Source: an uncultured Actinomycetota bacterium (GTDB taxonomy: Bacteria; Actinomycetota; Actinomycetes; Propionibacteriales; Nocardioidaceae). Taken from it: a stretch of 64,000 bases of DNA. Shown here piece after piece: positions 6,598-63,270 of the stretch (positions are counted from its first letter, which is position 1; each line of letters starts with the position of its first letter). The stretch spans positions 455,814-519,813 of the forward strand of contig CAWGVX010000002.1 of NCBI GenBank assembly GCA_963826155.1, given 5' to 3'. Under the pieces are notes generated by a model, which made no database searches, was not told the origin of the DNA, and worked only from the letters and a program-made list of their open reading frames with translations. The translations under genes were made by a program, and so were the position numbers.

Positions 6598-6984
6598 TCA
6601 ACGGCGCCGGCGCTCCCAGTTGGTGCACCAGCGCGTGGAGGTACGGCGTACGCCGGCGCAGCCGGGCAGCTCCTCGGGAGCCTCGAGCTCGTCGGTGTGC
6701 ACGTCGCGGACCAGCAGCGGCCTGGCGAGCCGGAGGCCGTTCAGGAAGATCTCGCAGTCGCAGAAGCCGCCCATGCTGCCCAGCCGTCGCTCGAGGCCGG
6801 TGGCCGTCGGTGACCTCGTGTCGCGGAACCGCTGCGACCACCGCAGCGTCGTGTCACAGCCGAACTCGTCGAGCATCCGCGCCACGTAGCAGGCCAGGCA
6901 CTCCGACCCGCGGGGAAGGGTGGCCGCCTCGGCCAGCACCCGCAGCTCCGACTCGAGCTGCTCGACCACCGTCATCTCGTTCAT
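6598..6984 (-). CDS. DUF2695-like protein
   Basis: CLACYV...GCDTTLRW...LGSMGGFCDCEIFLN; ATG after GGAGGAG. Confidence 0.75.
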   Translation of the reverse strand: MNEMTVVEQLESELRVLAEAATLPRGSECLACYVARMLDEFGCDTTLRWSQRFRDTRSPTATGLERRLGSMGGFCDCEIFLNGLRLARPLLVRDVHTDELEAPEELPGCAGVRRTSTRWCTNWERRRR

Positions 6985-10154: not shown

Positions 10155-10188
10155 GCCGGCCCGCCGGCCCCGGCGTAGCCTCGGGGCC

Positions 10189-10563
10189 ATGAGCATCCCC
10201 GTCGACGTGGCCGACCTGTCGAAGGCGCTGGGCGACTTCGGCGCCGGCTACCTGCTGACCGTCTCCGACCGCGCGCGGGTGAAGGCCGTGACCGTCGAGC
10301 CCTGGGTCCGCGACGGCGCGCTGGTGGTGTCCGGGCCGGGCAAGGGGTCGTGCGCCAACATCGCCGCCAACCCGGACGTCACCGTCATGTTCCCGCCGCT
10401 GGAGCAGCACGGCTTCACGCTGCTCGTCGACGGCACGGCCGAGGTCGACGGCGACGACGTGCTCGTCGTGCCGAGCCACGCCGTCCTGCACCGGCCGGCC
10501 GCGCACGCCGACGGACCGCCCGCGCCCGGTGGCTGCGGGAACGACTGCCACCAGGTCGGCTGA
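10189..10563 (+). CDS. Pyridoxamine 5'-phosphate oxidase-like small protein
   Basis: YLLTVSD...GKGSCANIAANPDVTVMFPP...TLLVDGTA. Confidence 0.7.
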   Translation: MSIPVDVADLSKALGDFGAGYLLTVSDRARVKAVTVEPWVRDGALVVSGPGKGSCANIAANPDVTVMFPPLEQHGFTLLVDGTAEVDGDDVLVVPSHAVLHRPAAHADGPPAPGGCGNDCHQVG

Positions 10564-12069: not shown

Positions 12070-12582
12070 ATGGGCGACCCGCGGATCCGCACCGCCACCG
12101 ACGAGGACTGGTGGCGCATCTGGCCGTTCTTCGACGCGACCGTGCAGGAGGGCGAGACCTACGCGTTCCCCCTCGACCTCACCGTCGAGACCGGCCGCGG
12201 CTGGTGGATGGAGCAGCCGCCCGGGCAGACCGTGGTGCTCGAGGAGGACCTGCCCGGCTCGGGGCCGACCCTCCTCGGCAGCGCCAAGATGGGCCCGAAC
12301 CGGCCCGGGCACGGCGACCACGTCGGCACCGCGTCGTTCATGGTCGCGCCGGAGGCGCGCGGCCGCGGCGTCGGCCGGGCGCTGGGCGAGCACGTGGTCG
12401 CCTGGCACCGCGAACGCGGGTTCCGCGGCATCCAGTTCAACGCCGTGGTCGAGACCAACACCGCCGCGGTCGGCCTGTGGCGCTCGCTGGGCTTCGAGGT
12501 GGTCGGCACGGTCCCGGGTGCCTTCCGCTCACCCGCCCACGGGTACGTCGGGCTGCACGTGATGCACCTGTCGCTGGTCTAG
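12070..12582 (+). CDS. GNAT family N-acetyltransferase
   Basis: HVGTASFMVAPEARGRGVGRALG, FNAVVETNTAAVGLWRSLGF. Confidence 0.9.
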   Translation: MGDPRIRTATDEDWWRIWPFFDATVQEGETYAFPLDLTVETGRGWWMEQPPGQTVVLEEDLPGSGPTLLGSAKMGPNRPGHGDHVGTASFMVAPEARGRGVGRALGEHVVAWHRERGFRGIQFNAVVETNTAAVGLWRSLGFEVVGTVPGAFRSPAHGYVGLHVMHLSLV

Positions 12583-12601
12583 CAGCCGACCCGCCCGGAC
12601 G

Positions 12602-13471
12602 TCATCCGTCCGATCCCGGCTCGTGCAGGTCGGCGTCCACCGCCGCGCGGACCAGCGCGAGCGCCTCCTCGACGCTGCCGGTCACGTCCTGGATCGGGAA
12701 GAGCGTGCCGCGCACGACCCGGTCGCGGTCCACGACGAGGGTGAGCCGCTTGAGCCGCGGGGTGCCGTGCAGGCGGAAGGTGGGCAGCCGCAGCGCGGTG
12801 GTCAGGCCCAGGTCCTCGTCGGAGAACAGCGGGAACCCGATGCCGTTCCGGTGGGCGAACTCCGCCTGCTCGTCCGGCCGCTGGGTGCTCACCCCGACCA
12901 CGCGGGCGCCGAGCGCGGCGAAGTCGTCGAGGCGGTCGCGGTAGGTGCAGGACTCCAGGGTGCAACCGGCGCCGCCGGGGACGGCGTCGACGCCGACCAG
13001 GGCCGAGCCCGGGTAGCAGTAGATCACCGTGTGCGACGCCGAGCCCGCCGGTCCGAGCGGGTCGGGGTCGAGGGCGGGCACCGTCGTGCCGACCAGGGCG
13101 GCGACGCGGTGCGCCTCCGCTGTCTCGATGGCGGACGTGGCGCTGGTCGAGCCGTCGCCGAGCAGCCAGGTGTCGCCCCACTCCTGCAGTGCGGCGAGCA
13201 CCGGCAGCGCGGCGCGGCCACGCTCGGTGAGGTGGTACTCGAAGCGCTCCGGTCGCTCCTGGTAGCGGACCCGGCGCAGCACGTCGGCCCCGACCAGGGC
13301 GGTCAGTCGTTGGGTGAGCACCTTGCGGGAGATGCCGCTCTCGGCGAGCAGCTGCTCGAAGCGGGTGCGGCCGCGGGCGAGGTCGCGGAGCACCAGCACC
13401 GACCAGGCGTCGCCGAGCACGCCGACCGCGTGCGCCACACCGCAGTCGTCCTCGGGGGTGCGCCTGGTCAT
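12602..13471 (-). CDS. HxlR-type winged-HTH regulator fused to a peroxiredoxin (AhpC/BCP-like) domain
   Basis: N-terminal VLGDAWSVLVLRD...EYHLTERG; C-terminal YCYPG...GCTLESCTYRD...FPLFSDEDL...LKRLTLVVD. Confidence 0.85.
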   Translation of the reverse strand: MTRRTPEDDCGVAHAVGVLGDAWSVLVLRDLARGRTRFEQLLAESGISRKVLTQRLTALVGADVLRRVRYQERPERFEYHLTERGRAALPVLAALQEWGDTWLLGDGSTSATSAIETAEAHRVAALVGTTVPALDPDPLGPAGSASHTVIYCYPGSALVGVDAVPGGAGCTLESCTYRDRLDDFAALGARVVGVSTQRPDEQAEFAHRNGIGFPLFSDEDLGLTTALRLPTFRLHGTPRLKRLTLVVDRDRVVRGTLFPIQDVTGSVEEALALVRAAVDADLHEPGSDG

Positions 13472-13523
13472 GCCCCCACCCTATAGTGCGTCTCCTATAG
13501 AAACTGACTGGGAGGAGAGCGAC

Positions 13524-14702
13524 GTGCGGGACGTCCCCCGGCTGGTGTGGGTGCTGGCGGCCGGCCGGTTCGCGAGCTCGGCCAGCTCCTTCCTGATGCT
13601 GTTCCTGACGCTTTACCTCACTGGTCCGCGCGGCCTGCCGGTGCCGGTGGCCGGGGTCGTCGCCGGGACGTACGGCGTGGGCCTGCTGGTCGGCAACTTC
13701 ACCGGCGGCCGGTGGGGCGACCGGTTCGGCCATCGCAGCACGCTCGTCGGCTGCTCGACCGTCTCCGGCCTGGGCGTGGCCGCGATCCCGTGGCTGCCGC
13801 TGCCGGTGCTGGCGGTCGCGCTGCCGGTGCTGGCCTACCTCTCGGCCACGGCCGCGGTCTCCACCGGTGCGCTGAGCGCGCTGGCGGTCCGGCGCGGCGA
13901 CCGCCGTACGGCGGTGGCGATCGGCCGTGCCGCCTCGAACGCCGGCTTCGTGCTCGGGCCGCCGCTGGGCGCGCTGCTCGTGGCGCGCGGCTTCGACGCG
14001 CTGTTCGTCGTCGACGGGCTGATGACCCTCGCGGTGCGGTTCGCGGTCGCCCACAGCCTGCCGCGCGAGGAGCGGCCCGAGTCCGGTGACCGGCCCGGGC
14101 CGAGCCTGTGGCGGGCGCTGCGCGCCGACCGGGCGCTGATGATGCTGCTGCCGGCGGTCGTCCTGGTCGACGTCGTCTACCGCCAGCTCTACACCACGCT
14201 GCCGATCCACCTGCGCGATGCCGGCCAGCCGGTGGGGCTCTACACCGCGCTGATCGCGGTCGGCTCCGGGCTGATCCTGCTCCTGGAGGTCCCCGTGGCG
14301 CTCCGCCTGCGGCGGTTCTCCTCGCACCCGATCATCGCCGCGGGGTACGCCCTGGTCGGCGTCGGTTTCGCGCTCTTCGCGCTGCCGGTCTCCGCGACCA
14401 CCGCGGTCCTCGCGATGGCGGTGCTCACCGCGGGCGAGATCCTCTACAAGACCACCGCGACCGCACACGTCCTCGACGCCGCGCCCGACCACCTCGTCGG
14501 CCAGTACCAGGGGCTCTACACCGGCGCCGCCACCAGCGGCATGATGCTCGCCGCCCCGATCGGGACGGCGGTCTACGCGCTGGCGCCCGGGCTGCTCTGG
14601 CCGGCCTGCGGCCTGGCCGGCCTGCTCGCGGCGTACGTCGTCCTCGCCTCCGGCCGCAGTCCGGTCAGACCGGCTCGGCGAACCCCGGCAGGTAGTCGGT
14701 GA
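13524..14702 (+). CDS. MFS transporter
   Basis: About 12 hydrophobic segments; motif A GGRWGDRFGHR; GTG after GGAGGAGA. Confidence 0.85.
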   Translation: MRDVPRLVWVLAAGRFASSASSFLMLFLTLYLTGPRGLPVPVAGVVAGTYGVGLLVGNFTGGRWGDRFGHRSTLVGCSTVSGLGVAAIPWLPLPVLAVALPVLAYLSATAAVSTGALSALAVRRGDRRTAVAIGRAASNAGFVLGPPLGALLVARGFDALFVVDGLMTLAVRFAVAHSLPREERPESGDRPGPSLWRALRADRALMMLLPAVVLVDVVYRQLYTTLPIHLRDAGQPVGLYTALIAVGSGLILLLEVPVALRLRRFSSHPIIAAGYALVGVGFALFALPVSATTAVLAMAVLTAGEILYKTTATAHVLDAAPDHLVGQYQGLYTGAATSGMMLAAPIGTAVYALAPGLLWPACGLAGLLAAYVVLASGRSPVRPARRTPAGSR

Positions 14703-50317: not shown

Positions 50318-51406
50318 TCACAGCCGGCCGACGAGGTCGGCGGCGGTCTCGCGCGCACTCTGGCCGACCCCGGCCAGGGTGGCGGAGGCGGGGCCGACCC
50401 AGTCGCCGTACCCGACCAGGTAGAGGCGCGGCTCGTGGAGGGCCCGGGTGCCGGGCGGCCCGCCGACCGGGACCCGTCCGTCATGGTCGCGCAGGCCGAG
50501 CTCCCTGAGGTGCTGCAGCGCGGGCCGGAAGCCGGTGCACCAGATCACGGCGTCCGCGGGGTGGGTGGTGCCGTCGGCCCAGGCCACGCCGGTGGTGGTG
50601 AGGCGGTCGAACATCGGTTGCGCCTTCAGGACGCCCCGGTCGCGTGCCTCCCGTACGCCGGGGACCATCACGATGTCGCCGAGCCCGGCGACGCCGGCGT
50701 GGTCGCGACCCTCGCGGAGGGCCTGGATGCGGGCCCGGGCGGTCGCGAAGAGCACCCGTCCGTCGACGTCGTCGGCAAGGAACCGGGGCGGCCTCGCCGT
50801 GACCCAGGTGGTGTCCGCGACCCGGGAGACCTCGGCCAGGATCTGGGCGGCCGAGTTGCCACCGCCGACGATCACGACCTGCTGCCCGGCGAACAGGTCA
50901 GGTCGGCGGTAGTCCGAGGCGTGCAGCTGCCGGCCCGCGAACTCGCGCATCCCCGGGTAGGACGGCCAGAACGGCCGGTCCCAGGTGCCGGTCGCGGAGA
51001 CGACGAACCGGGTGCTGATGGCCGGTCCGGGGCCGGCGACCAGCAGCTGCCCCGCCGGGTCGTCGTCGGCGCGGGTGACGGCGTCGACGCGGTGCGGCCG
51101 GCGCACGCGCAGGTCGTAGCGGGCCTCGTAGCGCGTCAGGTAGTCCACGACGTGGGCGCGGGGCGGGTATCCGTGCTCGGCGTCGTTCCAGGCCGGCATC
51201 ATCCAGCCGGGCAGCGAGGAGTGGGTGGAGGGGGAGAAGAGCCTCAGGTCCTCCCACATGTGCGACCACGAGCCGCCGGGTGCGGCGCCGGCGTCGAGGA
51301 TGACGAAGTCCTCGCCGGGAGTGAGTCCGGCGCGGCGCAGGTAGAAGCCGGTGGCGAGGCCGGCCTGGCCACCGCCCACGACGACGGCCTGGGTGCGGGC
51401 GGGCAC
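50318..51406 (-). CDS. arsO: ArsO-like flavin-containing monooxygenase
   Basis: GGGQAG, QLHASDY, GGGNSA, WCTGFRP; downstream of arsR in an ars cluster. Confidence 0.8.
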   Translation of the reverse strand: MPARTQAVVVGGGQAGLATGFYLRRAGLTPGEDFVILDAGAAPGGSWSHMWEDLRLFSPSTHSSLPGWMMPAWNDAEHGYPPRAHVVDYLTRYEARYDLRVRRPHRVDAVTRADDDPAGQLLVAGPGPAISTRFVVSATGTWDRPFWPSYPGMREFAGRQLHASDYRRPDLFAGQQVVIVGGGNSAAQILAEVSRVADTTWVTARPPRFLADDVDGRVLFATARARIQALREGRDHAGVAGLGDIVMVPGVREARDRGVLKAQPMFDRLTTTGVAWADGTTHPADAVIWCTGFRPALQHLRELGLRDHDGRVPVGGPPGTRALHEPRLYLVGYGDWVGPASATLAGVGQSARETAADLVGRL

Positions 51407-51417
51407 GAGCGGGTCGG

Positions 51418-51798
51418 TCAGCCGGTGAAGGCGAGGGCGTCGCGCACCTCGGCGAGGCGCTCGGGGACGACCCGGTAGTAGACCCAGGTGCCGCGCTTCT
51501 CGGTCGCGACCAGCCCGGCCTCGCGCAGCAGCTTGAGGTGGTGGCTGGTGGTGGCGGCGGTCTTCCCGATGCCGGCGCTGAAGTCGCAGGCGCACACCTC
51601 GTCGGCGTTGAGCAGCATCGACATGATCTTCACCCGGGCGGGGTCGGCCAGCGCCTTGAACATGCGGGCCAGCTCGGTTGCCGCGTCGTCACTCACGCTC
51701 GACGACGGGGTGCAGCAGGCGGCGATCACCGGGAGCGCAGTGCCCGGGCCAGGAGTCGCGGATCGGGTCACGGCCGGGGCGGTTTTCGTGCTGCTCAC
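51418..51798 (-). CDS. arsR: ArsR/SmtB regulator
   Basis: AACCTP, FKALADPARVKI, EVCACDF, SHHLKLLREAGLV...GTWVYY. Confidence 0.88.
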   Translation of the reverse strand: MSSTKTAPAVTRSATPGPGTALPVIAACCTPSSSVSDDAATELARMFKALADPARVKIMSMLLNADEVCACDFSAGIGKTAATTSHHLKLLREAGLVATEKRGTWVYYRVVPERLAEVRDALAFTG

Positions 51799-51829
51799 GG
51801 GCCCCAGCCTATCCGGGAACCACGGCTGT

Positions 51830-51891
51830 TTCGAGAAATGTCGAAGAAATGCTTTGATCTCTGTCGAACCTATGCTTCGATGAATGTCGAA
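51830..51891. promoter_or_regulatory. Three ArsR-type operator palindromes TT(C/T)GA-N6-TCGAA with 23-bp period
   Basis: 51830-51845, 51853-51868 and 51876-51891 in the divergent arsR/arsI intergenic region. Confidence 0.75.
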
Positions 51892-51926
51892 TCATCCTTC
51901 GTTCCCTTCCCGACAGGAGCACCGAC

Positions 51927-52364
51927 ATGTCCCGCCTGCAGCTCGCCCTCAATGTCGACGACATCGACGCGGCCGTGGACTTCTACACCACGCTGTTCGA
52001 CACCGCCCCGGCCAAGCGCCGGCCCGGCTACGCCAACTTCGCGGTGGCGGACCCGCCGCTGAAGCTGGTGCTCTTCGAGAACCCCGACGCCACCGGCACG
52101 CTGAACCACCTCGGCGTCGAGCGCGAGTCGATGGAGGAGGTCGAGGCCCAGGCGGACCGGCTGGAGGCGGCCGGCCTGCAGCTCCGCGTGGAGGGCGACG
52201 TGGTCTGCTGCTACGCGCGCCAGGACAAGCACTGGGTCACCGGTCCCGACGGTCAGTCCTGGGAGAACTACGTCGTGCGCGCCGACGCCCAGCCCGAGCT
52301 CGAGGGCAGGACGTACGCCGACCTCGGGCTCAGCGCGGCCTCGGGCGGCGGCTGCTGCTCCTGA
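51927..52364 (+). CDS. arsI: ArsI/CadI family glyoxalase-fold protein (C-As lyase-like)
   Basis: QLALNV, PLKLVLFEN, LNHLGVE, CCYARQDKHWVTGPDG..WE. Confidence 0.85.
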   Translation: MSRLQLALNVDDIDAAVDFYTTLFDTAPAKRRPGYANFAVADPPLKLVLFENPDATGTLNHLGVERESMEEVEAQADRLEAAGLQLRVEGDVVCCYARQDKHWVTGPDGQSWENYVVRADAQPELEGRTYADLGLSAASGGGCCS

Positions 52365-52438
52365 GTGGGTGGCGGCAGGTGCCGACCCGGGCCGACCGGC
52401 ACTTGCCGCCGGACATCGACGGCTGTCAACATAGACGC

Positions 52439-52861
52439 GTGTCGAAATCCTCTGGCGTCTCGACGCCCCGGCAACTGCCGCTCGCCGAGGGCTCCCTGAC
52501 GTGTTGCGTCCCGCTCGCGCACCAGCCGATGAGTGCCGGGCAGGCCGCGCAGGTGGCGCTCCTGCTGAAGGCGATCGCCGACCCGGCCCGGTTGCGGCTG
52601 CTCTCACTCGTGCTCTCCCACGAGGGTGCCGAGGCCTGCGTGTGCGACCTGACGCCGTACTTCGACCTGAGCCAGCCCACGATCAGCCACCACCTCAAGG
52701 TGCTGCACGAGAGCGGTCTGCTGGACCGCGAGAAGCGGGGGACCTGGGTGTTCTACAAGGCGCGCCCCGAGGCCATGGCCGCACTCGGCAGCCTGTTCGC
52801 GACCGGAGCCCTCGACGAGGCGGCCGGCCCCGGCGCGGGACTGGTGGGGGCCGACGGATGA
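52439..52861 (+). CDS. arsR: ArsR/SmtB regulator
   Basis: TCCVPL, KAIADPARLRL, EACVCDL, SQPTISHHLKVL. Confidence 0.88.
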   Translation: MSKSSGVSTPRQLPLAEGSLTCCVPLAHQPMSAGQAAQVALLLKAIADPARLRLLSLVLSHEGAEACVCDLTPYFDLSQPTISHHLKVLHESGLLDREKRGTWVFYKARPEAMAALGSLFATGALDEAAGPGAGLVGADG

Positions 52862-53973
52862 GCGACACGGTGCGCGAGGGCGGCGCGACCCGCAGCGACG
52901 GGACGGTCCTCCGGCAGCTCTCGACCCTGGACCGGTTCCTGCCGGTCTGGATCATCGCCGCGATGGTTCTCGGCCTGCTGCTCGGCCGCCTCGTGCCGGG
53001 GCTGGACGACGCGCTCGCGGCGGTCGAGATCGGATCGGTGTCGCTGCCGATCGCGGTCGGACTGCTCGTGATGATGTACCCGGTGCTGGCCAAGGTGCGC
53101 TACGACGAGCTCGGCCACGTCACCGGCGACCGGCGCCTGCTGGTGACCTCGATCCTGCTCAACTGGGTGCTCGGTCCCGCGCTGATGTTCACGCTGGCCT
53201 GGCTGCTGCTGCCCGACCTGCCCGACTACCGCACCGGCCTGATCATCGTGGGGCTGGCCCGCTGCATCGCGATGGTGCTGATCTGGAACGACCTGGCCTG
53301 CGGCGACCGCGAGGCCGCCGCGATCCTGGTGGCGCTCAACGCGGTCTTCCAGATCCTCGCGTTCGCCGTGCTCGGCTGGTTCTACCTCCAGGTCCTGCCC
53401 GGGTGGCTGGGCCTGGCGCAGGACGCGCTCGACGTCTCCATGTGGGGCATCGCCCGGTCCGTGCTGGTCTTCCTCGGCATCCCCCTGCTCGCCGGCTACC
53501 TCACCCGCACCCTCGGCGAGCGCGCCAGGGGCCGCGACTGGTACGAGGCCGAGCTGCTGCCCCGGATCGGTCCCGCCGCGCTCTACGGGCTGCTGTTCAC
53601 GATCGTCATCCTCTTCGCCCTGCAGGGCCGCACCATCACCAGCCAGCCGCTCGACGTGGCCCGCATCGCCGTACCCCTGCTGGTCTACTTCGCCGTGATG
53701 TGGGGCGGGTCGATGCTGCTGACGAAGGCGCTCGGCTTCGACTACCAGCGCGCCACCGCGGTCTCCTTCACCGCCGCCGGCAACAACTTCGAGCTCGCCA
53801 TCGCCGTCGCCATCGGCGTCTTCGGTGTCGCCTCCGGCCAGGCCCTCGCGGGCGTGGTCGGGCCGCTGATCGAGGTCCCCGCCCTCGTCGGGCTGGTCTA
53901 CGTCAGCCTCTGGGCCCGCCGCTTGTTCCCCGACCGCGGCGCCGCCACCACCTCGACGGGAGCTCTCCAGTGA
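52858..53973 (+). CDS. acr3: Acr3 arsenite efflux permease
   Basis: LSTLDRFLPVWI, MMYPVLAKV, GLARCIAMV, NNFELAIAVA, GPLIEVP. Confidence 0.95.
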   Translation: MSDTVREGGATRSDGTVLRQLSTLDRFLPVWIIAAMVLGLLLGRLVPGLDDALAAVEIGSVSLPIAVGLLVMMYPVLAKVRYDELGHVTGDRRLLVTSILLNWVLGPALMFTLAWLLLPDLPDYRTGLIIVGLARCIAMVLIWNDLACGDREAAAILVALNAVFQILAFAVLGWFYLQVLPGWLGLAQDALDVSMWGIARSVLVFLGIPLLAGYLTRTLGERARGRDWYEAELLPRIGPAALYGLLFTIVILFALQGRTITSQPLDVARIAVPLLVYFAVMWGGSMLLTKALGFDYQRATAVSFTAAGNNFELAIAVAIGVFGVASGQALAGVVGPLIEVPALVGLVYVSLWARRLFPDRGAATTSTGALQ

Positions 53974-54437
53974 CCGGTGCAGTGACCGGTGCAGTGACCG
54001 CCACCCGCGCCCCCCAGGTCGTCTTCGCCTGCGTCCGCAACGGCGGGCGCTCGGTCGCGGCCCGGGTGCTCACCGAGCACTACGCCGGCGGTCGCGTCGT
54101 CGCGCTCTCGGCCGGCACCCAGCCCGGCGAGCACATCCACCCCGAGGTCGCCGAGGTGCTCGAGAAGCTCGGCCTCGACACCTCCGCCGAGCACCCCAAG
54201 ATGCTCACCCGCGAGACCGTGGCGGCGAGCGACCTGGCGATCACCCTCGGCTGCGGCGAGGAGTGCCCCTACGTCCCGGGCGTGAGGTACGTCGACTGGC
54301 CGGTCGACGACCCGGGCGGGCAGGACGAGGCGACCGTGCGCCGGATCATCGCCGACCTCGACGGGCGGGTCCGCTCCCTGCTGGTCGACCTCGTCCCGGG
54401 CCTGGCGCTGCCGCCGTCGGTGCTCGCCCGGGGCTGA
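53970..54437 (+). CDS. arsC: LMW arsenate reductase / arsenate-mycothiol transferase
   Basis: CVRNGGRS (CX5R), SAGTQP, TLGCGEECPYVPG, DWPVDDP. Confidence 0.85.
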   Translation: MTGAVTGAVTATRAPQVVFACVRNGGRSVAARVLTEHYAGGRVVALSAGTQPGEHIHPEVAEVLEKLGLDTSAEHPKMLTRETVAASDLAITLGCGEECPYVPGVRYVDWPVDDPGGQDEATVRRIIADLDGRVRSLLVDLVPGLALPPSVLARG

Positions 54438-54464
54438 GGGTGCCTGCAGCTGCCGAGCCGGGGC

Positions 54465-56150
54465 TCAGGCGTCGATGACGATCGGGATGATCAGGGGGCT
54501 TCGCCGGAAGGCCTTGTGCGACCAGCGCCCGATGTCCCGGCTGAGCATCTGCTCGAGCTGGTGGGCGTCGCCGATGCCCTCGGACGCGGCCCGCGCGAGC
54601 GCCCGCTCGATGACCGGCTCGGCGGCGTCGAACGCGTCGGGCTCGTGCACGAAGCCGCGGACGAGGAAGTCCGGCCGGTCCGCGAGCAGGCCGGTGTCGG
54701 CGTCGACGATCACGAGCACGGTGACGACGCCCTGCTCGGCGAGGGTGCGGCGGTCCTTGAGCGTGGCCTCGGTGGCGCCGCCGACGGTCGCCGCGTCGAC
54801 GTACACGTTGCCGGCGGGCACCTTGCCCGTGATGCTGGCCCGCCCGTTCACGAGGTCGACCACCACGCCGTCCTCGGCGATGACCACGTGGTCGGGGTCG
54901 ATGCCGGTGCTGATGGCCAGGTCGGCGTTCGCGCGGAGGTGCCGCCACTCGCCGTGCACCGGCATGACGTTGCGGGGCCGGATGATGTTGTAGCAGTAGA
55001 CCAGCTCGCCGGCGCTGGCGTGGCCCGAGACGTGCACCTTGGCGTTGCCCTTGTGGACCACGCTGGCACCCCACCGGGTCAGTCCGTTGATGACCGTCGA
55101 GATGGCGTTCTCGTTCCCCGGGATGACCGAGCTCGCCATCAGGATCGTGTCGCCCTCGCCGACGCGGATCTTGTGGTCGCGGTTGGCCATCCGGGAGAGG
55201 GCCGCCATCGGCTCCCCCTGCGACCCGGTGCAGATGAGGGTGACCTTGTTCGGAGCCATGCGCTCGAGCTCGTTCAGCGGAACGACCAGCTTCGGGGGTA
55301 CGTCGAGGTAGCCGAGGTCCTGGGCGACGCCCATGTTGCGGACCATCGAGCGCCCGACGAAGGCCACCTTGCGGCCGTGGGCCTGGGCGGCGTCCAGCAC
55401 CTGCTGGATGCGGTGCACGTGGCTGGCGAAGCTGGAGACGATGATGCGTCGCGGGGCGTCGCGGAACACCTTCTCGATCGCCGGGGCGAGGTCGCGCTCC
55501 GACGTGGTGAAGCCCGGGACCTCGGCGTTGGTGGAGTCCGCCAGGAAGAGGTCCACGCCCTCGTCGCCCAGGCGCGCGAACCCCCGTAGGTCGGTGATCC
55601 GGCGGTCCAGCGGGAACTGGTCCATCTTGAAGTCCCCCGTGTGGAGCACCAGCCCCGCGCGGCTGCGGATGGCGACGGCGAGCCCGTCGGGGATCGAGTG
55701 GTTGACGGCGAGGAACTCGCAGCCGAAGGCCCCCAGGTCCACCGTGTCGCCCTCGGCGACCTCGCGCAGGCGGGGCCGGATCCGGTGCTCCTTCAGCTTC
55801 TCCTTGATGAGCGCCAGGGTCAGCCGAGACCCGATGACCGGGATGTCGGGGCGCTCCCGCAGCAGGTAGGGCACCCCGCCGATGTGGTCCTCGTGCCCGT
55901 GGGTCAGCACCAGGCCCACGACGGAGTCCAGCCGGTCCCGGATCCAGCTGAAGTCGGGCAGGATCACGTCGATGCCCGGCTGGTGCTCCTCGGGGAAGAG
56001 CACGCCGCAGTCGACGATCAGGAGCGACCCGTCGTGCTCGAAGACGGTCATGTTGCGGCCGATCTCGCCCAGGCCGCCCAGGCCCACGATGCGGAGTCCG
56101 CCCTTGGGTAGCCGTGGCGGCCTCTGCAGCTCGGGGTGGGGGTGACTCAC
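54465..56150 (-). CDS. rnj: Ribonuclease J
   Basis: [51 protein letters not shown]. Confidence 0.96.
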
Positions 56151-56266
56151 GGGCGACTCCGTTCTCGGGTGGTGCAGGCGACTGGGGGTCAATCCTGCCG
56201 CACCCGCGCTGCGCGGTCGGTACGGGCGCCGCTGCACACGGCACCGAACTGGCTAACGTGGGTCCG

Positions 56267-56429
56267 ATGCCGAACCGTCTTGCGACCGCGACCTCGCCGT
56301 ACCTCCTCCAGCACGCCGACAAACCGGTGGACTGGTGGGAGTGGGGCAGCGAGCCCTTCGAGGAGGCGCGGCGCCGCAACGTCCCGGTGTTGCTCAGCGT
56401 CGGCTACGCCACTGGTGCCACGTGATGGC
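56267..56429 (+). pseudogene. Original 5' fragment of the YyaL/DUF255 thioredoxin-domain gene, displaced by island insertion
   Basis: [27 protein letters not shown]...LLSVGYA; 37/48 aa identical to the 5' end at 61174; host-like codons; 7-bp deletion before the core. Confidence 0.85.
56408..56429 (+). repeat. attL-like core, 22-bp direct repeat GCCACTGGTGCCACGTGATGGC
   Basis: Identical to 61322-61343. Confidence 0.9.
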
Positions 56430-56524
56430 CGGTGGGCGTGAGGGTAGGGCGGCGGGCCAGGTTCAGGCGTAGAGCGGCTCGTTCTGTCCGGCCGGCACCC
56501 AGGTGGTTCCGGTCTTTCCGGAAC

Positions 56525-56547
56525 AATCTCAGTCTGGAATCTCTGTC
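56525..56547 (+). repeat. Tandem 13-bp-period AATCTC(A/T)GTC repeats (arm-type-like, left end)
   Basis: aatctcagtc-tgg-aatctctgtc; the 14-mer CTGGAATCTCTGTC recurs at 61104-61117. Confidence 0.65.
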
Positions 56548-56615
56548 TGACACAGGTTCTCGAGACCCAGGGGGAGGGGCTTGCCGCTAGTGGTCAGTGT
56601 CGCATGGTTGACAGG

Positions 56616-57269
56616 TCAGATCTCGACGCGGAGAAAGGTCAGCACCGCGAGGACGCGGCGGTGATCGTCGCTGGTGTCGGGGAGGTTGAGCTTGGTGAAG
56701 ATGTTGGAGATGTGTTTCTCGACTGCGCCGAGCGTGACGACCAGTTCTTTGGCGATGCCGGCGTTGGTGCGGCCTTCGGCCATCAGCGCGAGTGTCTCGC
56801 GTTCGCGTGGTGTGAGTGGGTCGAGTTCGTTGCTGCTTGCTGAGCGGACGCGTACGAGCTCGGAGACGACCTCGCGGTCCAGGGCAGTGCCGCCGGCCGC
56901 GACGCGTTGTAGCGCGTCGACGAACTCGGCGATGTCGCTGACTCGCTCCTTGAGGAGGTAGCCGAGGCCGCCGCCGGGTGAGTCGAGGAGCTCGGCGGTG
57001 TACACGGGTTCGACGTACTGCGACAGGATGAGGGCGGCTAGCTCTGGGTGCTTGGCCCTCGCGGAGATGGCTGCGCGGATGCCTTCGTCGGTGAAGGTGG
57101 GAGGCAGGCGGACGTCGATGATCGCGAGGTCTGGGTTGTGCTCGGCGATGATGTCGAGCAGGCCGGGGCCGGTGTCGGTGAAGGCCACGACCTCGATGTC
57201 GACGTCGTTGAGCAGGGCGATGAGTCCCTCGCGTAGGAGTGCGTGATCCTCGGCGATCACTACGCGCAC
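56616..57269 (-). CDS. NarL/LuxR family response regulator
   Basis: VIAEDH, IDVRLPP, YLLK, LTPRERETLALMAEGRTNAGIA...VEKHISNIFTKL. Confidence 0.95.
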   Translation of the reverse strand: MRVVIAEDHALLREGLIALLNDVDIEVVAFTDTGPGLLDIIAEHNPDLAIIDVRLPPTFTDEGIRAAISARAKHPELAALILSQYVEPVYTAELLDSPGGGLGYLLKERVSDIAEFVDALQRVAAGGTALDREVVSELVRVRSASSNELDPLTPRERETLALMAEGRTNAGIAKELVVTLGAVEKHISNIFTKLNLPDTSDDHRRVLAVLTFLRVEI

Positions 57270-58306
57270 GGCACCTCCGCATGGACGTGTGTTGGCCCTC
57301 CCTCGGGTGAGAAGAGCTCGAACGTGCCGTCTAGGGCCTCGACACGCGCCCGCAAGCCTTGCACACCGGTTCCCGTCAGGTCGACGCCGCCGGGGCCTTG
57401 GTCGGTGACGTCGGCGGCCAATGAGTCGAGGGCGTAAGTGAGGCGGATGTGGACAGCGGAGCCTGGGGCGTGCTTGGTCGCGTTCGTCAACGCTTCGGCG
57501 ACCACGAAGTAGATGGCACTCTCGGCCGCGGGCGGTGGACGGTTGCTGTCGCTGGGGCTCGCGCCGATGACCTCGATCGTGGCGCTTCCGCGCTGGGTGA
57601 GGGACTGGATGGCTGCGACCAGGCCCCGGTCGGCCAGCACGGGCGGTGCGATGCCTCGGGAGATGTCACGCAGTTCGCCGATGGCGAGGTTGGCCTCCTC
57701 GCGGGCGGCGCGGACGAGGGCGGCTGCCTTGGGTTCGTGGGCGACGGCGAGCTCGGCGCGGCCGAGCTGCATGGTGAGGGCGACCAGTCGGGCCTGCGCG
57801 CCGTCGTGGAGGTCGCGCTCGATGCGGCGCAGCTCCGCGGCCTGGGCGTCGACGGCTTGGCGACGGGTTCGGCTGAGGGTGTCGACGCGTTCCTGCAGCT
57901 TGCGGGTCCCGAAGGCAGGGAGATCGTCGCGGAGGTCGATGAGGGCGTGCAGGCCCAGCAGGACGCCGAGGCCGATGACGGACCAGAGCACCCACGGTCC
58001 CTGGTGGCCGGTGAAGGCCCACACGAACACCAGGGCGACGGACAGCGTGATGGTGACTTCCAGGTGCAGTCGCACTCGGGCATGCGGGGTGTTGGGCGTG
58101 CCGCGCACGTGCTGTCGCCACAGGAGCGGGACCAGGACGGTCGCGCACCCGAGGATGACCCAGCTCGGCCAGAAGTAGCCTCCTCCGGCTGCGACCCAGA
58201 CGGCCACGCAGGTCAGCACGGTGATGAGGCTGAGAGCGGTCAGGAACGCCAGGGGCGAGGCGACCGGTCGGTTCGCCTCGCCTCGACGGGGGGTGATACC
58301 CCTCAT
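57260..58306 (-). CDS. Membrane sensor histidine kinase (HisKA_3)
   Basis: Four TM segments, IERDLHDGAQARL, AEALTNATKHA, DQGPGG, GLRARVEALDG. Confidence 0.92.
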   Translation of the reverse strand: MRGITPRRGEANRPVASPLAFLTALSLITVLTCVAVWVAAGGGYFWPSWVILGCATVLVPLLWRQHVRGTPNTPHARVRLHLEVTITLSVALVFVWAFTGHQGPWVLWSVIGLGVLLGLHALIDLRDDLPAFGTRKLQERVDTLSRTRRQAVDAQAAELRRIERDLHDGAQARLVALTMQLGRAELAVAHEPKAAALVRAAREEANLAIGELRDISRGIAPPVLADRGLVAAIQSLTQRGSATIEVIGASPSDSNRPPPAAESAIYFVVAEALTNATKHAPGSAVHIRLTYALDSLAADVTDQGPGGVDLTGTGVQGLRARVEALDGTFELFSPEGGPTHVHAEVPCA

Positions 58307-60582
58307 GCTGTGTCCTGTCCTTCGGGAGCACTGATGGCGGCATTCTTCCAGCCGGGCATCCGCCAGCCGCGCTCTCCGAGGAGGGCGACGACGGCTGGCA
58401 GAGCTACGCCTCGCACCAGTGTCGCGTCGATCAGGACCGCTGCCGCAAGGCCCACACCCAGCTGCTTGAAGGTGATGACGTCTAGCGTCGCGAAGATCGA
58501 GAACACGGCGACCATGACGATGGCGGCGCTGGTGATCGTGCCCGCGGTGGCGCCGACACCCTCCGCGGCAGCAGCGCGGGGGCTCAGCCCCGCAAGACGC
58601 GCCTCGCGGATGCGCTCGAGGACCAGCACGGTGTAGTCCATGGAGAGCCCGAACAGCACCACGAACATGAACAGGGGCAGCCAGTTGATGATGTGCCCGG
58701 TGGAGTGGAAGTGGAGCAGGCCTTCTGCCCAGCTGTGCTGGAAGACCAGCGTGAGGACGCCGTAGGCGGCGCCCACGGAGAGCAGGTTCAACCCCATCAC
58801 AGCCGCCGCCAGGAGGGGCGACCGGAAGGTCAGCAGCAACAGCAGGAAACCGAGCAGCAGAACGAACCCGATGACCTCAGGGGTGGCCACGCTCATGCGG
58901 TCGGAGTAGTCCATGGTCGACGCGGCATCGCCGGTGACCAGCGCGGACGAGGTGACGCCGTCGATCTTGGTCGCCTCCGGCGCGACGTCCGTCCGCAGCT
59001 GCGTGATGGTGTCGCTCGCCTCGTCGAGGCTCTGGTCCGGCATCGGCACATTCACGCGGGCGACCTGACCATCGGAGGAGACCGTGACGGTGATCGGGCC
59101 CTGTCCACCGGTGGCCTTGCTCGCCTGCTGCCCGAGGGCGGTGAGGGCTTTCTTGGCGTCGGGGGTGTCGAGGTCGTGGCCGGAGACGACCAGCTGGCTG
59201 TCCGATGGGGCGCCGGGGAACGACGTCTCGATGGCGTTGAGCGCCTGGACCACCGGGAGGTCTTGGGGCAGGTCGGCGACCTGTAGGTCCCCGGTCTGCA
59301 TCGAGGCGAACGGGACGGTCAGGGCACCGAGGACGCCGACAGCGGCCAGGAGGAACCCGAGCGGGTGGTTGGTGACGACGCGGGCGAGCCGGGCCCAGAA
59401 GCCGTTCGGCCGGCCGGCAGCCGAGGCGCGCTGCTCTCGTCGGGCGCGGGCCGCGGCGCGGCGGCGGTAGCCCGGGATGCGGCCACGGTCGACGCGGTCA
59501 CCGAGAAGGGCGAGCGTCGCGGGCAGCACGGTGAGCGAGCCGAGCACGGCGATCGCGACCACCGTCATGGTGCCCAGGCCGATCGAGACGAGGTCGCCGG
59601 CGCCGGTGATGAGCAGGCCGGCCAGGGAGATGATCACGGTGAGTCCCGAGATGAAGATCGCTCGGCCCACGGACGCGGCTGCAGCGATCAACGCGGACTC
59701 CGGCATGGCCCGACCGGCAACGCGTGCCGGCCCGCGGCCGCGGCGGCGCTCCTCACGCTCGCGGCGCACGTAGAACAGGGAGTAGTCGACCCCGACCGCG
59801 AGACCGATGAGAACGACGATCGCCGAGGTCGACCCGCTGTTGGGTGCGATGTGCGACACCAACCCCAGGGCACCGATGGCCGCGACCACGGAGGTGAGGC
59901 CCAGCACGAGCGGCACGCTGGCGGCGACGAGGGCGCCGAACGCCAGGACGAGGATCAGCAGCGTCAGCGGCAGTGAAATCATCTCGGCACGGTGAAGACC
60001 CGTCCCGATGACGTCGTTGATCGCCTTGGTCTCGGTCCCGTCGCCGACCTCCTGGAGCTGAGTGCCTGGATGTGCGGCTTCGACCTTGTCGTTGAGCTCG
60101 AGTAGCGGGTCGACGTGGTCGGCGGCATCGTCGGGGTTCCCGCTCAGCTGGACCTGCACGAGAACGGTCCGGCCACCATCGGCGACCAGCTCCTCAGACT
60201 GAGCCGGCCCCGTCACCGACGCCACGCTCGGCAGGGCGGCCGCCTGCTTGGTCAGGTCAGCAGCCGCATCGCTCGCCTTGGTCGCCGTAGGTGCCGTGAT
60301 CGGGATGTTCTCCGTGGCAGGGTCACGAAGCCCCTTCTGCTGAAGGAGGGAGTCGGCCTGCGCAGACTCACCGACCTCCGACTGAACCTCGGTGAGGTTC
60401 TGGGTGCCGACGAAGCTGCCCATGGCGACGCACGCCACCACGAACAGCAACCACGCGGCGATGATCTTCCTCGGATGACGCTGCGCGACCAACGCGGACC
60501 CCCGCACCAAACGAACCAAAGAGCCCTGCGACTTCGTCGTCGGCAGGTCGCCGCCGCGCTCGCGAGAGAGGGAGAAAGTCAT
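58303..60582 (-). CDS. MMPL (RND-superfamily) transporter
   Basis: GLAVGVDYSLF and FGLSMDYTVLVLERIRE motifs; two extracytoplasmic loops. Confidence 0.93.
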   Translation of the reverse strand: MTFSLSRERGGDLPTTKSQGSLVRLVRGSALVAQRHPRKIIAAWLLFVVACVAMGSFVGTQNLTEVQSEVGESAQADSLLQQKGLRDPATENIPITAPTATKASDAAADLTKQAAALPSVASVTGPAQSEELVADGGRTVLVQVQLSGNPDDAADHVDPLLELNDKVEAAHPGTQLQEVGDGTETKAINDVIGTGLHRAEMISLPLTLLILVLAFGALVAASVPLVLGLTSVVAAIGALGLVSHIAPNSGSTSAIVVLIGLAVGVDYSLFYVRREREERRRGRGPARVAGRAMPESALIAAAASVGRAIFISGLTVIISLAGLLITGAGDLVSIGLGTMTVVAIAVLGSLTVLPATLALLGDRVDRGRIPGYRRRAAARARREQRASAAGRPNGFWARLARVVTNHPLGFLLAAVGVLGALTVPFASMQTGDLQVADLPQDLPVVQALNAIETSFPGAPSDSQLVVSGHDLDTPDAKKALTALGQQASKATGGQGPITVTVSSDGQVARVNVPMPDQSLDEASDTITQLRTDVAPEATKIDGVTSSALVTGDAASTMDYSDRMSVATPEVIGFVLLLGFLLLLLTFRSPLLAAAVMGLNLLSVGAAYGVLTLVFQHSWAEGLLHFHSTGHIINWLPLFMFVVLFGLSMDYTVLVLERIREARLAGLSPRAAAAEGVGATAGTITSAAIVMVAVFSIFATLDVITFKQLGVGLAAAVLIDATLVRGVALPAVVALLGERGWRMPGWKNAAISAPEGQDTA

Positions 60583-60655
60583 ACCTCAATCGTCGAAGAA
60601 TGCGCCCGCTCGGTCACTGGAGCCAACCGGCGTCCAGCTCAGCGGGCACCCCCCC

Positions 60656-60689
60656 GGACTCATGGTGGGGATAACCCCACCATGAGTCC
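60656..60689. promoter_or_regulatory. Perfect 15-bp inverted repeat upstream of the MMPL gene, putative response-regulator operator
   Basis: GGACTCATGGTGGGG-ATAA-CCCCACCATGAGTCC. Confidence 0.55.
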
Positions 60690-60811
60690 ATGGTGAAAGG
60701 TTGTGGCTGCCGCCTGGACTGGCGCCGCGCGCAACCAGCCTCACGCGCCGTAGGACCCCGGACTGCCCGCGGGCTAGGTCATTTCCATCTCGGCCTTGGT
60801 GAGGTGTTCCC

Positions 60812-60996
60812 TTACCAGGACGTATCTTCAGGGGTGTCGAGGCGGTACTTGCCGCCGAGGACGGGCCGGGGAGAGCCGGGCGTCTTGAGGTGTACGTAGC
60901 CCTGTGTCTTGCCCCAGCCGTAGCGGGCGAAGACGTCGCGGGCGGACAGGAACTGTGCCGGGGGGCGAGCCCCTCGAGCGTTGTTGGTGTGGTCAT
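60812..60996 (-). pseudogene. AlpA/excisionase-like small HTH gene, frameshifted
   Basis: ATG at 60996 gives [11 protein letters not shown]; after the C6 run (60960-60965) another frame gives [43 protein letters not shown]. Confidence 0.65.
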
Positions 60997-61103
60997 GGGG
61001 TGGAACGTGCTGGCTCTGAAATCGGCCGCAATCACGGAGTTCTGGTCGTCCCTGACCCGGTCTGGACCCGGCCGGACGGACCGGTCGGAACCAGCTCTTC
61101 TGC

Positions 61104-61123
61104 CTGGAATCTCTGTCGGGAAT
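61104..61123 (+). repeat. CTGGAATCTCTGTC plus partial second copy (arm-type-like, right end)
   Basis: ctggaatctctgtc-ggg-aatcc; the 14-mer is identical to 56534-56547. Confidence 0.65.
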
Positions 61124-61173
61124 CCCAAGCAGCTGCTCGCCTGTCACTTGGGCAGTGGCAGAGACTGGTCACT

Positions 61174-63162
61174 ATGCCCAACCGTCTCGCTGCATCATTG
61201 AGCCCGTACCTGCAGCAGCACAAGGACAATCCGGTGGACTGGTGGGAGTGGGGACCCGAGCCGTTCGCTGAGGCTCGCCGGTTAGACATACCTGTCCTTT
61301 TGAGCGTCGGGTACGCCGCGTGCCACTGGTGCCACGTGATGGCGCACGAGTCGTTCGAGGACGAGGCGACCGCGGCCTACCTCAACGAGCACTTCGTCGC
61401 GATCAAGGTCGACCGCGAGGAGCGGCCCGACGTCGACGCGGTCTACATGCAGGCGACCACGGCGATGACCGGGCAGGGCGGCTGGCCGATGACGGTGGTG
61501 CTCGACCACGACGGCACCCCGTTCTTCGCCGGCACCTACTTCCCAGACAAGCCGCGGCACGGCCAGCCGTCGTTCGGCCAGGTGCTGCAGGCGCTCGTCG
61601 ACGCGTGGCGGGACCGCGGCGACGACGTACGCCGGGTCGCGGGCAGCGTCCGCGAGCACCTCAGCCAGGGGCTGTCGCTCACCGGTTCGGCCCAGCCCAT
61701 CGGCGCCGAGCTGCTCGACGCCGCGGTCGCGACGCTGGCCGGGGAGCTCGACGCGCGCAACGGCGGGTTCGGCGGCGCGCCGAAGTTCCCGCCGTCGATG
61801 GTGCTGGAGCTCTTGGCCCGCCATGCGGTCGCGACAGGCTCGACCAGCGAGGGGCGCGAGCGCGCGACGGTGATGCTCGACGCGACCTGCGAGGCGATGG
61901 CCCGCGGCGGGATCTACGACCAGCTCGGCGGGGGCTTCGCGCGCTACTCGGTCGACGCCGGCTGGGTGGTGCCGCACTTCGAGAAGATGCTCTACGACAA
62001 CGCCCAGCTGCTCGGTGTCTACGCCCGCTGGGGCGGGCCGCTGGGGGACAGGGTCGCCCGCGAGACCGCCGACTTCCTGCTCCGCGAGCTGCGCACGGCC
62101 GAGGGCGGGTTCGCCTCCGCGCTCGACGCCGACAGCGAGGGTGTCGAGGGCCGGTTCTACTCCTGGACGCCGGCGCAGCTGGCCGAGGTGCTGACCCCCG
62201 AGGACGCCGCCTGGGCCGCGCAGGTCTTCGAGGTCACCGAGGCCGGCACCTTCGAGCACGGCGCCTCCACGCTGCAGCTGCTCCGCGACCCCGAGGGCCC
62301 GGGGGAGCAGCGGCTGCGCGACGTGCGCACGGTGCTGCTCGCCGCCCGCGAGACCCGGGTCCGGCCGGCCCGCGACGACAAGGTGGTCGCGGCCTGGAAC
62401 GGGCTGGCGATCTCCGGGCTCTGTGCGGCCGGGCTGCTGCTCGAGGAGCCGTCGTACGTCGAGGCCGCGGCGACCGCCGGCGAGCTGCTCGCCTCGTTGC
62501 ACATCGTGGACGGCCGGCTGCGCCGGGTCTCCCGCGACGGCGTGGTGGGCCGGCACGCGGCGGTGCTCGAGGACCTCGGCTGCGTGGCCGCCGGCTACCT
62601 CGCGCTGCTCCGGGCCACCGGCGACGCGGTGTGGCTGGAGCGCGCCCGGGTGCTGCTCGACGACGCGCTGATGAGGTTCCGCGCCGAGGACGGCGGCTTC
62701 TTCGACACCGGCTCCGACGCCGAGGCGCTGGTCGCCCGGCCGCGGGACCCGTCGGACAACGCCAGCCCGTCCGGCCTGTCCGCGACCGTGCACGCGCTCG
62801 CCGAGTACGCCGCGCTCACCGGCTCCGGCCGGCACCGGCAGGCCGCCGAGGAGGCGCTCGCGACGGTGGCGGCGCTGGCCGAGCGGGCGCCCCGGTTCGC
62901 CGGCTGGTCGCTCGCGGCCGCCGAGGCGATGCTCGACGGACCGTTGGAGATCGCGGTCGTCGGCCCCGCCGGACCGGACCGCGACGCGCTCGCCGCCCGC
63001 GCCCGGCGGGTCCCCGGCGCAGTGGTCGTCGTCGCCGACGGGCCCCGCGAGGACGTGCCCCTGCTGGTCGGGCGGACCGCGGTCGACGGCCGCGCGGCGG
63101 CGTACGTCTGCCGGCACCAGGTCTGCGAACGCCCGGTCACCGACCCAGCCGACCTCCCCTGA
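61174..63162 (+). CDS. YyaL/DUF255 (SPATA20-like) thioredoxin-domain + alpha/alpha-toroid protein; 5' end supplied by the island
   Basis: [64 protein letters not shown]. Confidence 0.93.
61322..61343 (+). repeat. attR-like core, 22-bp direct repeat
   Basis: Identical to 56408-56429; spans the CHWCHVMA codons. Confidence 0.9.
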
Positions 63163-63169
63163 CCCTGCG

Positions 63170-63270
63170 CGAGACGGCACTTCGGTCAAGTCTCACGGCG
63201 CCGAGACGGCACTTGTGCCGGCGCGAGTGCCGTCTCGGCACGTCGGGAGTTGATGCAAGTGCCCTCTCGC
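63170..63270. repeat. Intergenic palindromic element (GGCACTT...AAGTGCC family)
   Basis: 14-bp stem 63200-63213/63226-63239; reverse-complement matches to 31415-31423 and 31440-31450. Confidence 0.65.

Follow-up and report, generated by a model that had tools for sequence, protein, structure and literature searches.

An apparently decayed genomic island in the active-site codons of yyaL and a probable family of integrative islands at the same site in Actinobacteria

The yyaL locus and its insert

The stretch analysed here comprises 64,000 nucleotides (hereafter the window) of the genome of an uncultured bacterium of the Nocardioidaceae (assembly GCA_963826155.1, contig CAWGVX010000002.1), and it contains yyaL, a gene of the thioredoxin-like DUF255 group, in which a 4.9-kb insert sits at the codons of the CXXC active site. 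To the right of the insert lies a full-length gene (61174-63162) for a 662-aa YyaL protein (Pfam Thioredox_DsbH/DUF255, E 3e-71), and to the left a partial copy of the beginning of the same gene. We favour the view, with a probability of roughly 85%, that a foreign integrative island entered yyaL by site-specific recombination, restored the reading frame from a 5' end that it carried itself and later decayed. The parts of yyaL and the repeats that delimit the insert are as follows, GC3 being the G+C fraction at third codon positions.

56267..56425, plus strand: native start of yyaL, displaced and reduced to a pseudogene fragment with 47 homologous codons (from GC3 and identity to relatives)
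56408..56429, no strand: attL copy of a 22-bp repeat (core region), over the CHWCHVMA codons of the original gene (exact repeat, two copies in the window)
61174..61321, plus strand: replacement 5' end of yyaL, element-borne, 49 codons (GC3 0.755, low identity to relatives)
61322..61343, no strand: attR copy of the 22-bp repeat, encoding the CXXC active site of the working gene (exact repeat)
61344..63162, plus strand: native remainder of yyaL, with the thioredoxin-like DUF255 domain and a C-terminal domain (93% nucleotide identity to Nocardioides panaciterrulae; Pfam; GC3 0.977)

The window contains exactly two copies of the 22-mer GCCACTGGTGCCACGTGATGGC, one at 56408-56429 and the other at 61322-61343, and the match cannot be extended on either side; by our own arithmetic, only about 1e-4 to 1e-3 pairs of exact 22-mers would be expected by chance in 64 kb of random sequence. 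The two copies bracket the insert (core to core 56408-61343, spacing 4914 bp) and place the att core inside coding sequence. They close a longer stretch of homology (56297-56410 against 61204-61317, 75% identity, start-to-start spacing 4907), within which a second perfect repeat, a 23-mer, covers the PVDWWEWG codons (56324-56346 = 61231-61253). The left open reading frame begins with an ATG at 56267 and is homologous to the right copy over 47-48 codons, with 37 of 48 amino acids identical. Directly before the repeat, the left copy is missing 7 bp (GCCGCGT), a detail absent from the first-pass annotation of this DNA; without these bases the frame is shifted and runs into a TGA at 56423-56425.

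Origin of the two 5' ends

Codon composition distinguishes the two copies. GC3 is 0.936 in the left fragment, 0.755 in codons 1-49 of the right copy and 0.977 in the rest of yyaL, with adjoining host genes at about 0.975 and the cargo genes of the insert at 0.84-0.88; in a binomial test against a GC3 of 0.975, the right copy gave a p of 2e-9 and the left fragment one of 0.11. The first-pass annotation, made from the sequence alone, had described a perfect direct repeat at the CHWCHVMA codons, a homologous left fragment of 48 codons, and host-like codons in that fragment as opposed to A/T-ending codons at the start of the right gene, with a switch at the repeat, and all of these observations are borne out by the coordinates and values given above.

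Comparison with relatives leads to the same assignment. The genome belongs to Nocardioides, and the nearest relative is N. panaciterrulae (locus L081), whose YyaL is 91% identical and to which nucleotide identity is 93% for the gene body, 91% for the left fragment of the window and 70% for its right 5' end. The corresponding values are 87%, 81% and 67% for L082, and 84%, 82% and 72% for L083, two relatives in which the site is empty, that is, without an upstream fragment and with yyaL 5' ends of host type (GC3 0.94-0.98). Insert-free relatives were inspected for a 5' end of the type found at 61174; L082 and L083, as well as the functional gene of N. panaciterrulae, carry the type found at 56267. 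Among 91 loci, the best match to the right 5' end of the window does not exceed 80% identity. As the identities of the left fragment parallel the host phylogeny and those of the right 5' end do not, the left copy is native and the right one foreign. The 5' end of the working gene is thus of foreign origin and yyaL is chimeric.

Recurrent insertion at the same codons

We surveyed 80 yyaL loci from species-representative genomes, within 91 loci fetched in all. In 3 of the 80, a second yyaL 5' end lies 2-5.5 kb upstream of the full-length gene, namely in a metagenome-assembled genome (MAG) of the Actinomycetota (L002), a MAG of the Propionibacteriales (L004) and Dactylosporangium vinaceum (L052). 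N. panaciterrulae and Yimella radicis (L087) likewise have a second 5' end ahead of the full-length gene, and the search of actinobacterial genomes for duplicated yyaL 5' ends flanking inserts, which had been proposed at first pass, has thereby yielded five further genomes.

When the junctions of the six occupied sites were aligned, the break from yyaL fell 0-4 nt past TGGTGCCA in L002, L004, L081 and L087, and in these four and the window the homology between the copies stops 0-9 nt past the same octamer, in the CHWCH codons. The insertion point of the window lies at the CHWCH codons with the core TGCCACTGGTGCCA, as it does in the yyaL-targeting islands described below. In L052 the copies diverge after TGGTGTCA, and the right junction is broken: it reads TGCCACTGGT + AGCTTCCGCAACTCAATT + TGGTGTCACGTC (10100-10215), the extra 18 nt being flanked by TGGT and introducing a stop codon after CHW, so that yyaL seems to be disrupted in this genome. 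What lies between the copies differs from one genome to the next: a TOTE primase-helicase, Fic and a helix-turn-helix (HTH) protein in L002; a DUF1016 nuclease, HTH, DUF6880 and PIN proteins in L004; NYN and DUF6551 in L052; PIN_3/VapC50, HTH_17 and DUF2510 in L081; and Wadjet JetABCD in L087. A recurrent breakpoint combined with unrelated cargo argues for site-specific insertion and against chance duplication or assembly error.

Assembly error deserves separate consideration. Five independent assemblies, some of them complete genomes or long contigs, show the same architecture, and the window is itself part of a 4.48-Mb contig. The converse of our assignment, in which the left fragment would be foreign and the right copy native, is contradicted by composition and phylogeny, both of which mark the right 5' end as foreign. 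We regard either possibility, a duplication created by assembly or a swapped origin of the copies, as hardly credible.

Of 74 yyaL genes drawn from several phyla, 36 contain the core 14-mer TGCCACTGGTGCCA without mismatch, and conservation is at least 90% in most of its columns. An invariant catalytic motif and a strong high-GC codon bias keep the DNA of the core nearly constant, which suits a broad host range.

An integrase family linked to yyaL

Three of the inserts at this site have no integrase gene (L002, L052 and L081). In L004, only a truncated integrase gene is present, its N-terminal part adjoining the right yyaL copy, and in Nocardioides vastitatis (L001) the full gene, for an integrase of 468 aa, is divergent from yyaL and lies 107 nt upstream of it. 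A protein search with the L001 integrase returned 343 homologues at E <= 1e-20; among the 120 listed, nearly all have about 468 aa and are 83-92% identical, at least eight genera are represented, and most are annotated as 'hypothetical protein'. The listed proteins come from Nocardioides, Yimella, Marmoricola, Georgenia, Isoptericola, Aeromicrobium, Phycicoccus and Jiangellales. In eight of eight genomic contexts (L001, L084, L085, L086, L087, L088, L090 and L091), the integrase gene is divergent from a full-length yyaL and adjacent to it, and in Y. radicis (L087) a complete island of about 11.3 kb has a displaced yyaL fragment of host type at its far end. The possible new island family targeting yyaL that had been put forward at first pass has thus been found. 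A tandem duplication of the yyaL 5' end with an unrelated insertion was also considered as an origin of the architecture and was rejected on the grounds of the recurrent breakpoint and the integrase linkage.

From its sequence, the 468-aa protein is predicted to be a divergent tyrosine recombinase. It matches PHROG 1 'integrase' (E 2e-21); 17 of 20 members match PF00589 with scores under the gathering threshold (best E 2.7e-6), 16 of 20 match PF14659 below cut-off, and NCBIfam has no model for it. The residues R257, K296, R416, H417 and Y450 are invariant, and two canonical tyrosine-recombinase positions, as read from the sequence, appear to be substituted (R413 and D441). Sequence and profile searches of the PDB with the integrase gave nothing meaningful, and an AlphaFold2 model from 20 close homologues, with a pLDDT (predicted local distance difference test) of 42, was unusable.

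The 5' ends that adjoin the integrase appear to travel with it. Over nucleotides 1-141, those of L001, L084, L085 and L087 are 87-90% mutually identical, while the gene bodies are 67-75% identical; this separate comparison of codons 1-48 and the remainder, which the first-pass annotation had suggested as a pair of trees, was run as an identity matrix. GC3 of the integrase-adjacent 5' ends is 0.68-0.77 in five of six genes (0.89 in L088), compared with 0.85-0.96 in the bodies and 0.83-0.98 in the left fragments.

Both arms of the islands in L087 and L004 contain a 13-bp unit, TCGTGCATCACTC (TCGTGTATCACT in L004), in two to three tandem copies, placed between the integrase and the yyaL 5' copy on one side and about 115-125 nt beyond the left core on the other. 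The unit is also present in the intergenic region of L001, and in L002 and L081 it is found in the left arm only. These repeats look like arm-type sites, and we predict that the integrase binds them. The arms of L052 resemble neither those of the canonical family nor those of the window, and the Dactylosporangium island may represent a third lineage at the same site.

Recurrent architecture could in principle arise in another way, as Campbell-type homologous recombination of a circular DNA that carries a yyaL 5' fragment would yield the same arrangement with no integrase involved, and the two copies in N. panaciterrulae, identical over about 150 nt, indicate that such duplicates do undergo homologous exchange or gene conversion. 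The two 5' copies in the window, however, are only about 70-75% identical and share no perfect match above 23 bp, so that homologous recombination would find little to work with. Five of the six occupied genomes lose homology at most 9 bp after the same octamer (the sixth is L052, with its broken right junction), and intact relatives have conserved arm repeats and an adjacent integrase. Campbell-type insertion is therefore, in our judgement, very improbable, and we retain site-specific recombination as the route of entry.

The integrase-adjacent cargo of the family consists mostly of defence genes: type I restriction-modification with an AAA_15 or a KAP NTPase in L085 and L090, MmeI-type enzymes in L084 and L086, SIR2_2 in L086 and L088, Wadjet in L087, and LmuB_C, MC3 and CTD7 in L091. 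Beyond the restriction-modification and KAP NTPase genes of L090, an Aeromicrobium sp., a TrwC-type relaxase is encoded at 12876-13224, so some members of the family may be conjugatively mobilisable. Nocardioides terrisoli (L086) has two DDE_5 transposase genes of equal length on the yyaL-distal side (682-1878 and 3972-5168) and, inside the island, an ISL3 transposase gene (12367-13665) next to a short SIR2_2 reading frame; these transposases suggest insertion-sequence activity in and around the island.

The island of the window

Between its two att copies, the island of the window contains the following features.

56430..56615, no strand: left arm (P' arm), non-coding, with the candidate arm-type site CTGGAATCTCTGTC at 56534-56547
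56616..57269, minus strand: NarL/LuxR-type response regulator, cargo (Pfam Response_reg and GerE; best NCBIfam match MadR/MctR, below cut-off; GC3 0.844)
57260..58306, minus strand: HisKA_3 sensor histidine kinase, cargo (Pfam HisKA_3 and HATPase_c; GC3 0.862)
58303..60582, minus strand: MMPL-family transporter of the resistance-nodulation-division (RND) type, cargo (Pfam MMPL, E 5e-71; NCBIfam MmpL3-like, below cut-off; GC3 0.875)
60656..60689, no strand: perfect 15-bp inverted repeat GGACTCATGGTGGGG ATAA CCCCACCATGAGTCC with a 4-nt loop, 75-105 nt upstream of the MMPL start (read from the sequence)
60815..60964, minus strand: truncated remnant, 48 aa, of an excisionase-like gene, that is, one resembling genes for recombination directionality factors (tblastn against the small gene of L004 at 6452-6712, 48-50% amino acid identity over 42-46 aa)
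60965..61173, no strand: right arm (P arm), presumed promoter region of the chimeric yyaL, with CTGGAATCTCTGTC at 61104-61117

The inverted repeat at 60656-60689 may serve the adjacent LuxR-type regulator as an operator, or it may act as a terminator. The excisionase-like remnant ends early and has no Pfam match; its counterpart in L004 is 73% identical to intact genes of 93-105 aa in the integrase-bearing islands L087 and L088, and these match PHROG 66 'excisionase and transcriptional regulator' weakly (E 0.01-0.02). The position of the right arm, 60965-61173, is the one that the integrase gene occupies in intact islands.

No TCGTGCATCACTC repeats were found in the arms of the window. Instead, the 14-mer CTGGAATCTCTGTC stands once in each, in the left arm 112 nt past the core octamer, which matches the distance from the core in the P' arm of the family. 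Judged by eye, the CAGGT(T)CAG motif of the left arm resembles the canonical P' arm, and CTGGAATCTCTGTC is absent from all other fetched loci. With the same layout and core and a different arm sequence, the island of the window is better seen as a sister lineage than as a member of the family.

Several observations weigh against the reading that we prefer. No integrase was detected in 56430-61173 or elsewhere in the window, by Pfam or by tblastn with the L001 integrase, and site-specific recombination is consequently argued from relatives and not from the island itself. None of the fetched loci closely matches its arms, its arm motif or its 5' copy, and a protein search with the excisionase-like remnant gave no candidates for intact relatives; its kinship with the 468-aa family would be read from the shared core, the position of the arm repeats and a 46-aa remnant of 48-50% identity. 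A scan of the right arm, the presumed promoter region, for the sigma-70 consensus found no match, actinobacterial promoters fitting that consensus poorly. In N. panaciterrulae, where the two yyaL 5' copies are the same over about 150 nt, the functional copy is host-like (GC3 0.98), so that the simple model does not cover every occupied site. Finally, a search of sequencing runs for the strain returned only soil metagenomes with at most 14% of words. A metagenome DNA scan with the arm motif and the yyaL start gave a single AT-rich gut contig, a chance match.

The lack of an integrase can also be read differently. The island could be cis-mobilizable and not a fossil, with attL, attR and the arms usable in trans by a cognate integrase and excisionase that are encoded elsewhere in the 4.48-Mb genome or brought in by an incoming element. 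In line with this, the 22-bp repeat is perfect, each arm has kept one candidate arm site, and integrase-less inserts such as those in L002, L052 and L081, together with the truncated gene of L004, are common at the site and could reflect trans-mobilised elements. On the other hand, the 7-bp deletion abuts the attL core and alters the left core-flanking bases, the excisionase-like gene is truncated, the 64 kb examined hold no integrase, and the arms have one candidate site each where canonical arms have two to three tandem repeats. We consider mobilisation in trans unlikely, though less so than the other alternatives weighed above, and maintain that site-specific entry was followed by decay.

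Proposed history of the insertion

In the history that we propose, an integrase would have recombined the core of an attP with an attB formed by the CHWCH(VMA) codons of yyaL, in or beside TGGTGCCA. On its integrase side, the attP would have carried about the first 49 codons of a yyaL gene together with upstream sequence. Integration would then have moved the native start (56267-56425) 4.9 kb away and, at the same time, formed the intact chimeric yyaL at 61174-63162. Transcription of the chimeric gene would start within the island, because the native promoter now lies 4.9 kb upstream with three opposite-strand genes in between, and this geometry suggests that an element-borne promoter drives the restored gene.

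Decay would have come afterwards and would have included the loss of the integrase gene (which in intact relatives has the excisionase-like gene region on one side and the 5' copy of yyaL on the other), the truncation of the excisionase-like gene and the deletion of the 7 bp by the attL core, in an order that we can only suggest. What remains in the window are both arms, with one 14-bp candidate arm-type site each, and the cargo of a NarL-type two-component system and an MMPL transporter. The island is probably immobile now and fixed in place.

Relation to known elements and wider implications

The closest parallel is provided by the dusA-associated islands (DAIs) and prophages, in which a tyrosine-integrase island inserts into the 5' end of a conserved housekeeping-type gene and replaces that end with island sequence while the gene stays intact, and in which an integrase family is tightly tied to one target in many genomes (Farrugia et al., 2015, PMC4482086). 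The locus in the window shares with these islands an in-gene att repeat, a native 5' fragment that has been displaced, and a gene that is intact but chimeric. The yyaL islands differ from them in their target, the CXXC codons of yyaL/DUF255, in their hosts, which are high-GC Actinobacteria as opposed to Proteobacteria, and in the defence-dominated cargo of the family, and the copy in the window differs further in having no integrase, unlike its relatives L001, L084-L088, L090 and L091. A further difference is that the yyaL integrases have no above-threshold Pfam or NCBIfam model.

Integrative and conjugative elements (ICEs) of the SXT/R391 type, which are large conjugative elements, integrate in the 5' end of prfC and supply a new 5' coding end and a promoter. 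The yyaL islands likewise enter a protein gene near its start and provide a new 5' coding end; in contrast to SXT, those sampled have sizes between about 2 kb and more than 12 kb, and no conjugation genes were seen in them except the TrwC-type relaxase of L090, the insert of the window having none. The proposal made at first pass that the window holds an analogous element targeting yyaL/DUF255 is supported, with the qualification that its own copy is integrase-less, divergent and decayed. In streptococci, cis-mobilizable elements (CIMEs) are att-flanked, integrase-less derivatives of ICEs, and the island of the window resembles them in having kept both att sites and arms with no recombination genes, but the flank of its attL is damaged by the 7-bp deletion. 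Actinomycete ICEs (AICEs) of the pSAM2/SLP1 type have a tyrosine integrase and Xis, usually use a tRNA gene as attB, and encode an FtsK-like Tra and a Rep. The family islands share with AICEs that they are actinobacterial integrative elements with a tyrosine integrase, whereas no FtsK-like Tra or Rep is encoded in the insert of the window or among the Pfam-matched genes listed for the sampled yyaL islands. The Pfam matches in the insert are confined to the response regulator, the histidine kinase and the MMPL transporter, with no FtsK/SpoIIIE-type transfer or replication gene among them, and the window contains no tRNA gene. Having neither Tra/Rep genes nor a tRNA target, the island of the window is not an AICE.

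Our literature searches turned up no account of yyaL/DUF255 serving as an attachment site; automated island catalogues (TIGER/Islander), which were not covered, may contain such islands. In one paper that mentions both yyaL and an integrase, YyaL appears only as ICE cargo, in an archaeon. We think it probable, if less firmly so than our account of the window itself, that a large group of actinobacterial islands, undescribed as a family, has the CXXC-coding sequence of yyaL as its dedicated attachment site. These islands would use a conserved, divergent 468-aa tyrosine integrase that Pfam and NCBIfam do not name, would ferry defence systems between genera, and would have overwritten the first ~48 codons of yyaL such that the gene is a mosaic across the class, with at least two further lineages, that of the window and that of Dactylosporangium, having converged on the site or diverged at it.

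A redox active-site motif would thus join prfC, dusA and others as a protein-coding attB at which the 5' end is overwritten by an island, and a clade mostly annotated as 'hypothetical protein' is added to the integrases. The family appears to move defence systems among soil Actinobacteria, including type I and MmeI-type restriction-modification, Wadjet, SIR2, Lamassu-like and KAP NTPase systems. Phylogenies of yyaL call for some caution, as codons 1 to ~48 can differ in history from the remainder, and so does annotation, in which small upstream 'Thioredox_DsbH' reading frames mark the far end of an island. With a core sequence that is near-universal, the integrase is a candidate for a tool that inserts DNA site-specifically in high-GC actinomycetes. 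For the strain studied here, the two-component system and the MMPL transporter would represent a fixed acquisition, and the chimeric yyaL is presumably run from island sequence.

Flanking rearrangements and the site in N. panaciterrulae

The host gene on the left side of the island lies outside it.

54465..56237, minus strand: rnj (RNase J), left flank (Pfam RNase_J_b_CASP, RNase_J_C and Lactamase_B)

The true start of rnj is likely near 56150, its nucleotide identity to rnj of N. panaciterrulae is 94.7%, and its GC3 is 0.975. The first-pass annotation had expected rnj to stand next to yyaL, divergently, at empty sites; RNase J is, however, not beside yyaL in the 80 species-representative loci, nor in L082 or L083. 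In a comparison of the window (50322-56266) with L081 (1-5260), an arsenic-resistance block with a flavin-containing monooxygenase (FMO), comprising genes for FMO, ArsR, glyoxalase, ArsR, ACR3 and ArsC, is found on one side of rnj in the window and on the other in N. panaciterrulae. The window reads block, rnj and yyaL fragment, and N. panaciterrulae reads rnj, the 4-kb block, a further 1.8 kb and the yyaL fragment. Of the native sequence upstream of yyaL, about 31 nt are left in the window before the upstream region of rnj begins. The upstream flank of yyaL is a rearrangement hot spot with poor synteny.

Directly upstream of the functional yyaL of N. panaciterrulae (L081 9848-9965) lies a 112-118-bp piece of the 3' end of arsC that is 85% identical to the arsC of the same genome (5148-5264) and 81% identical to that of the window. 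This piece looks like a fossil of the arsC-yyaL junction of another host that arrived together with the island's right-hand module. The identity of the two 5' copies in this genome over about 150 nt suggests gene conversion. Most likely, DNA of another Nocardioides with arsC immediately ahead of yyaL either supplied or replaced the right-hand module, and gene conversion acted between the two copies.

Just downstream of yyaL, the window has an inverted repeat (63169-63270) with abutting arms of 51 nt that are 76% complementary, and a similar self-complementary stretch of 100 nt is found at the same place in L081 (12013-12114). A palindromic element between yyaL and the gene for a GMC oxidoreductase is thus conserved in both species.

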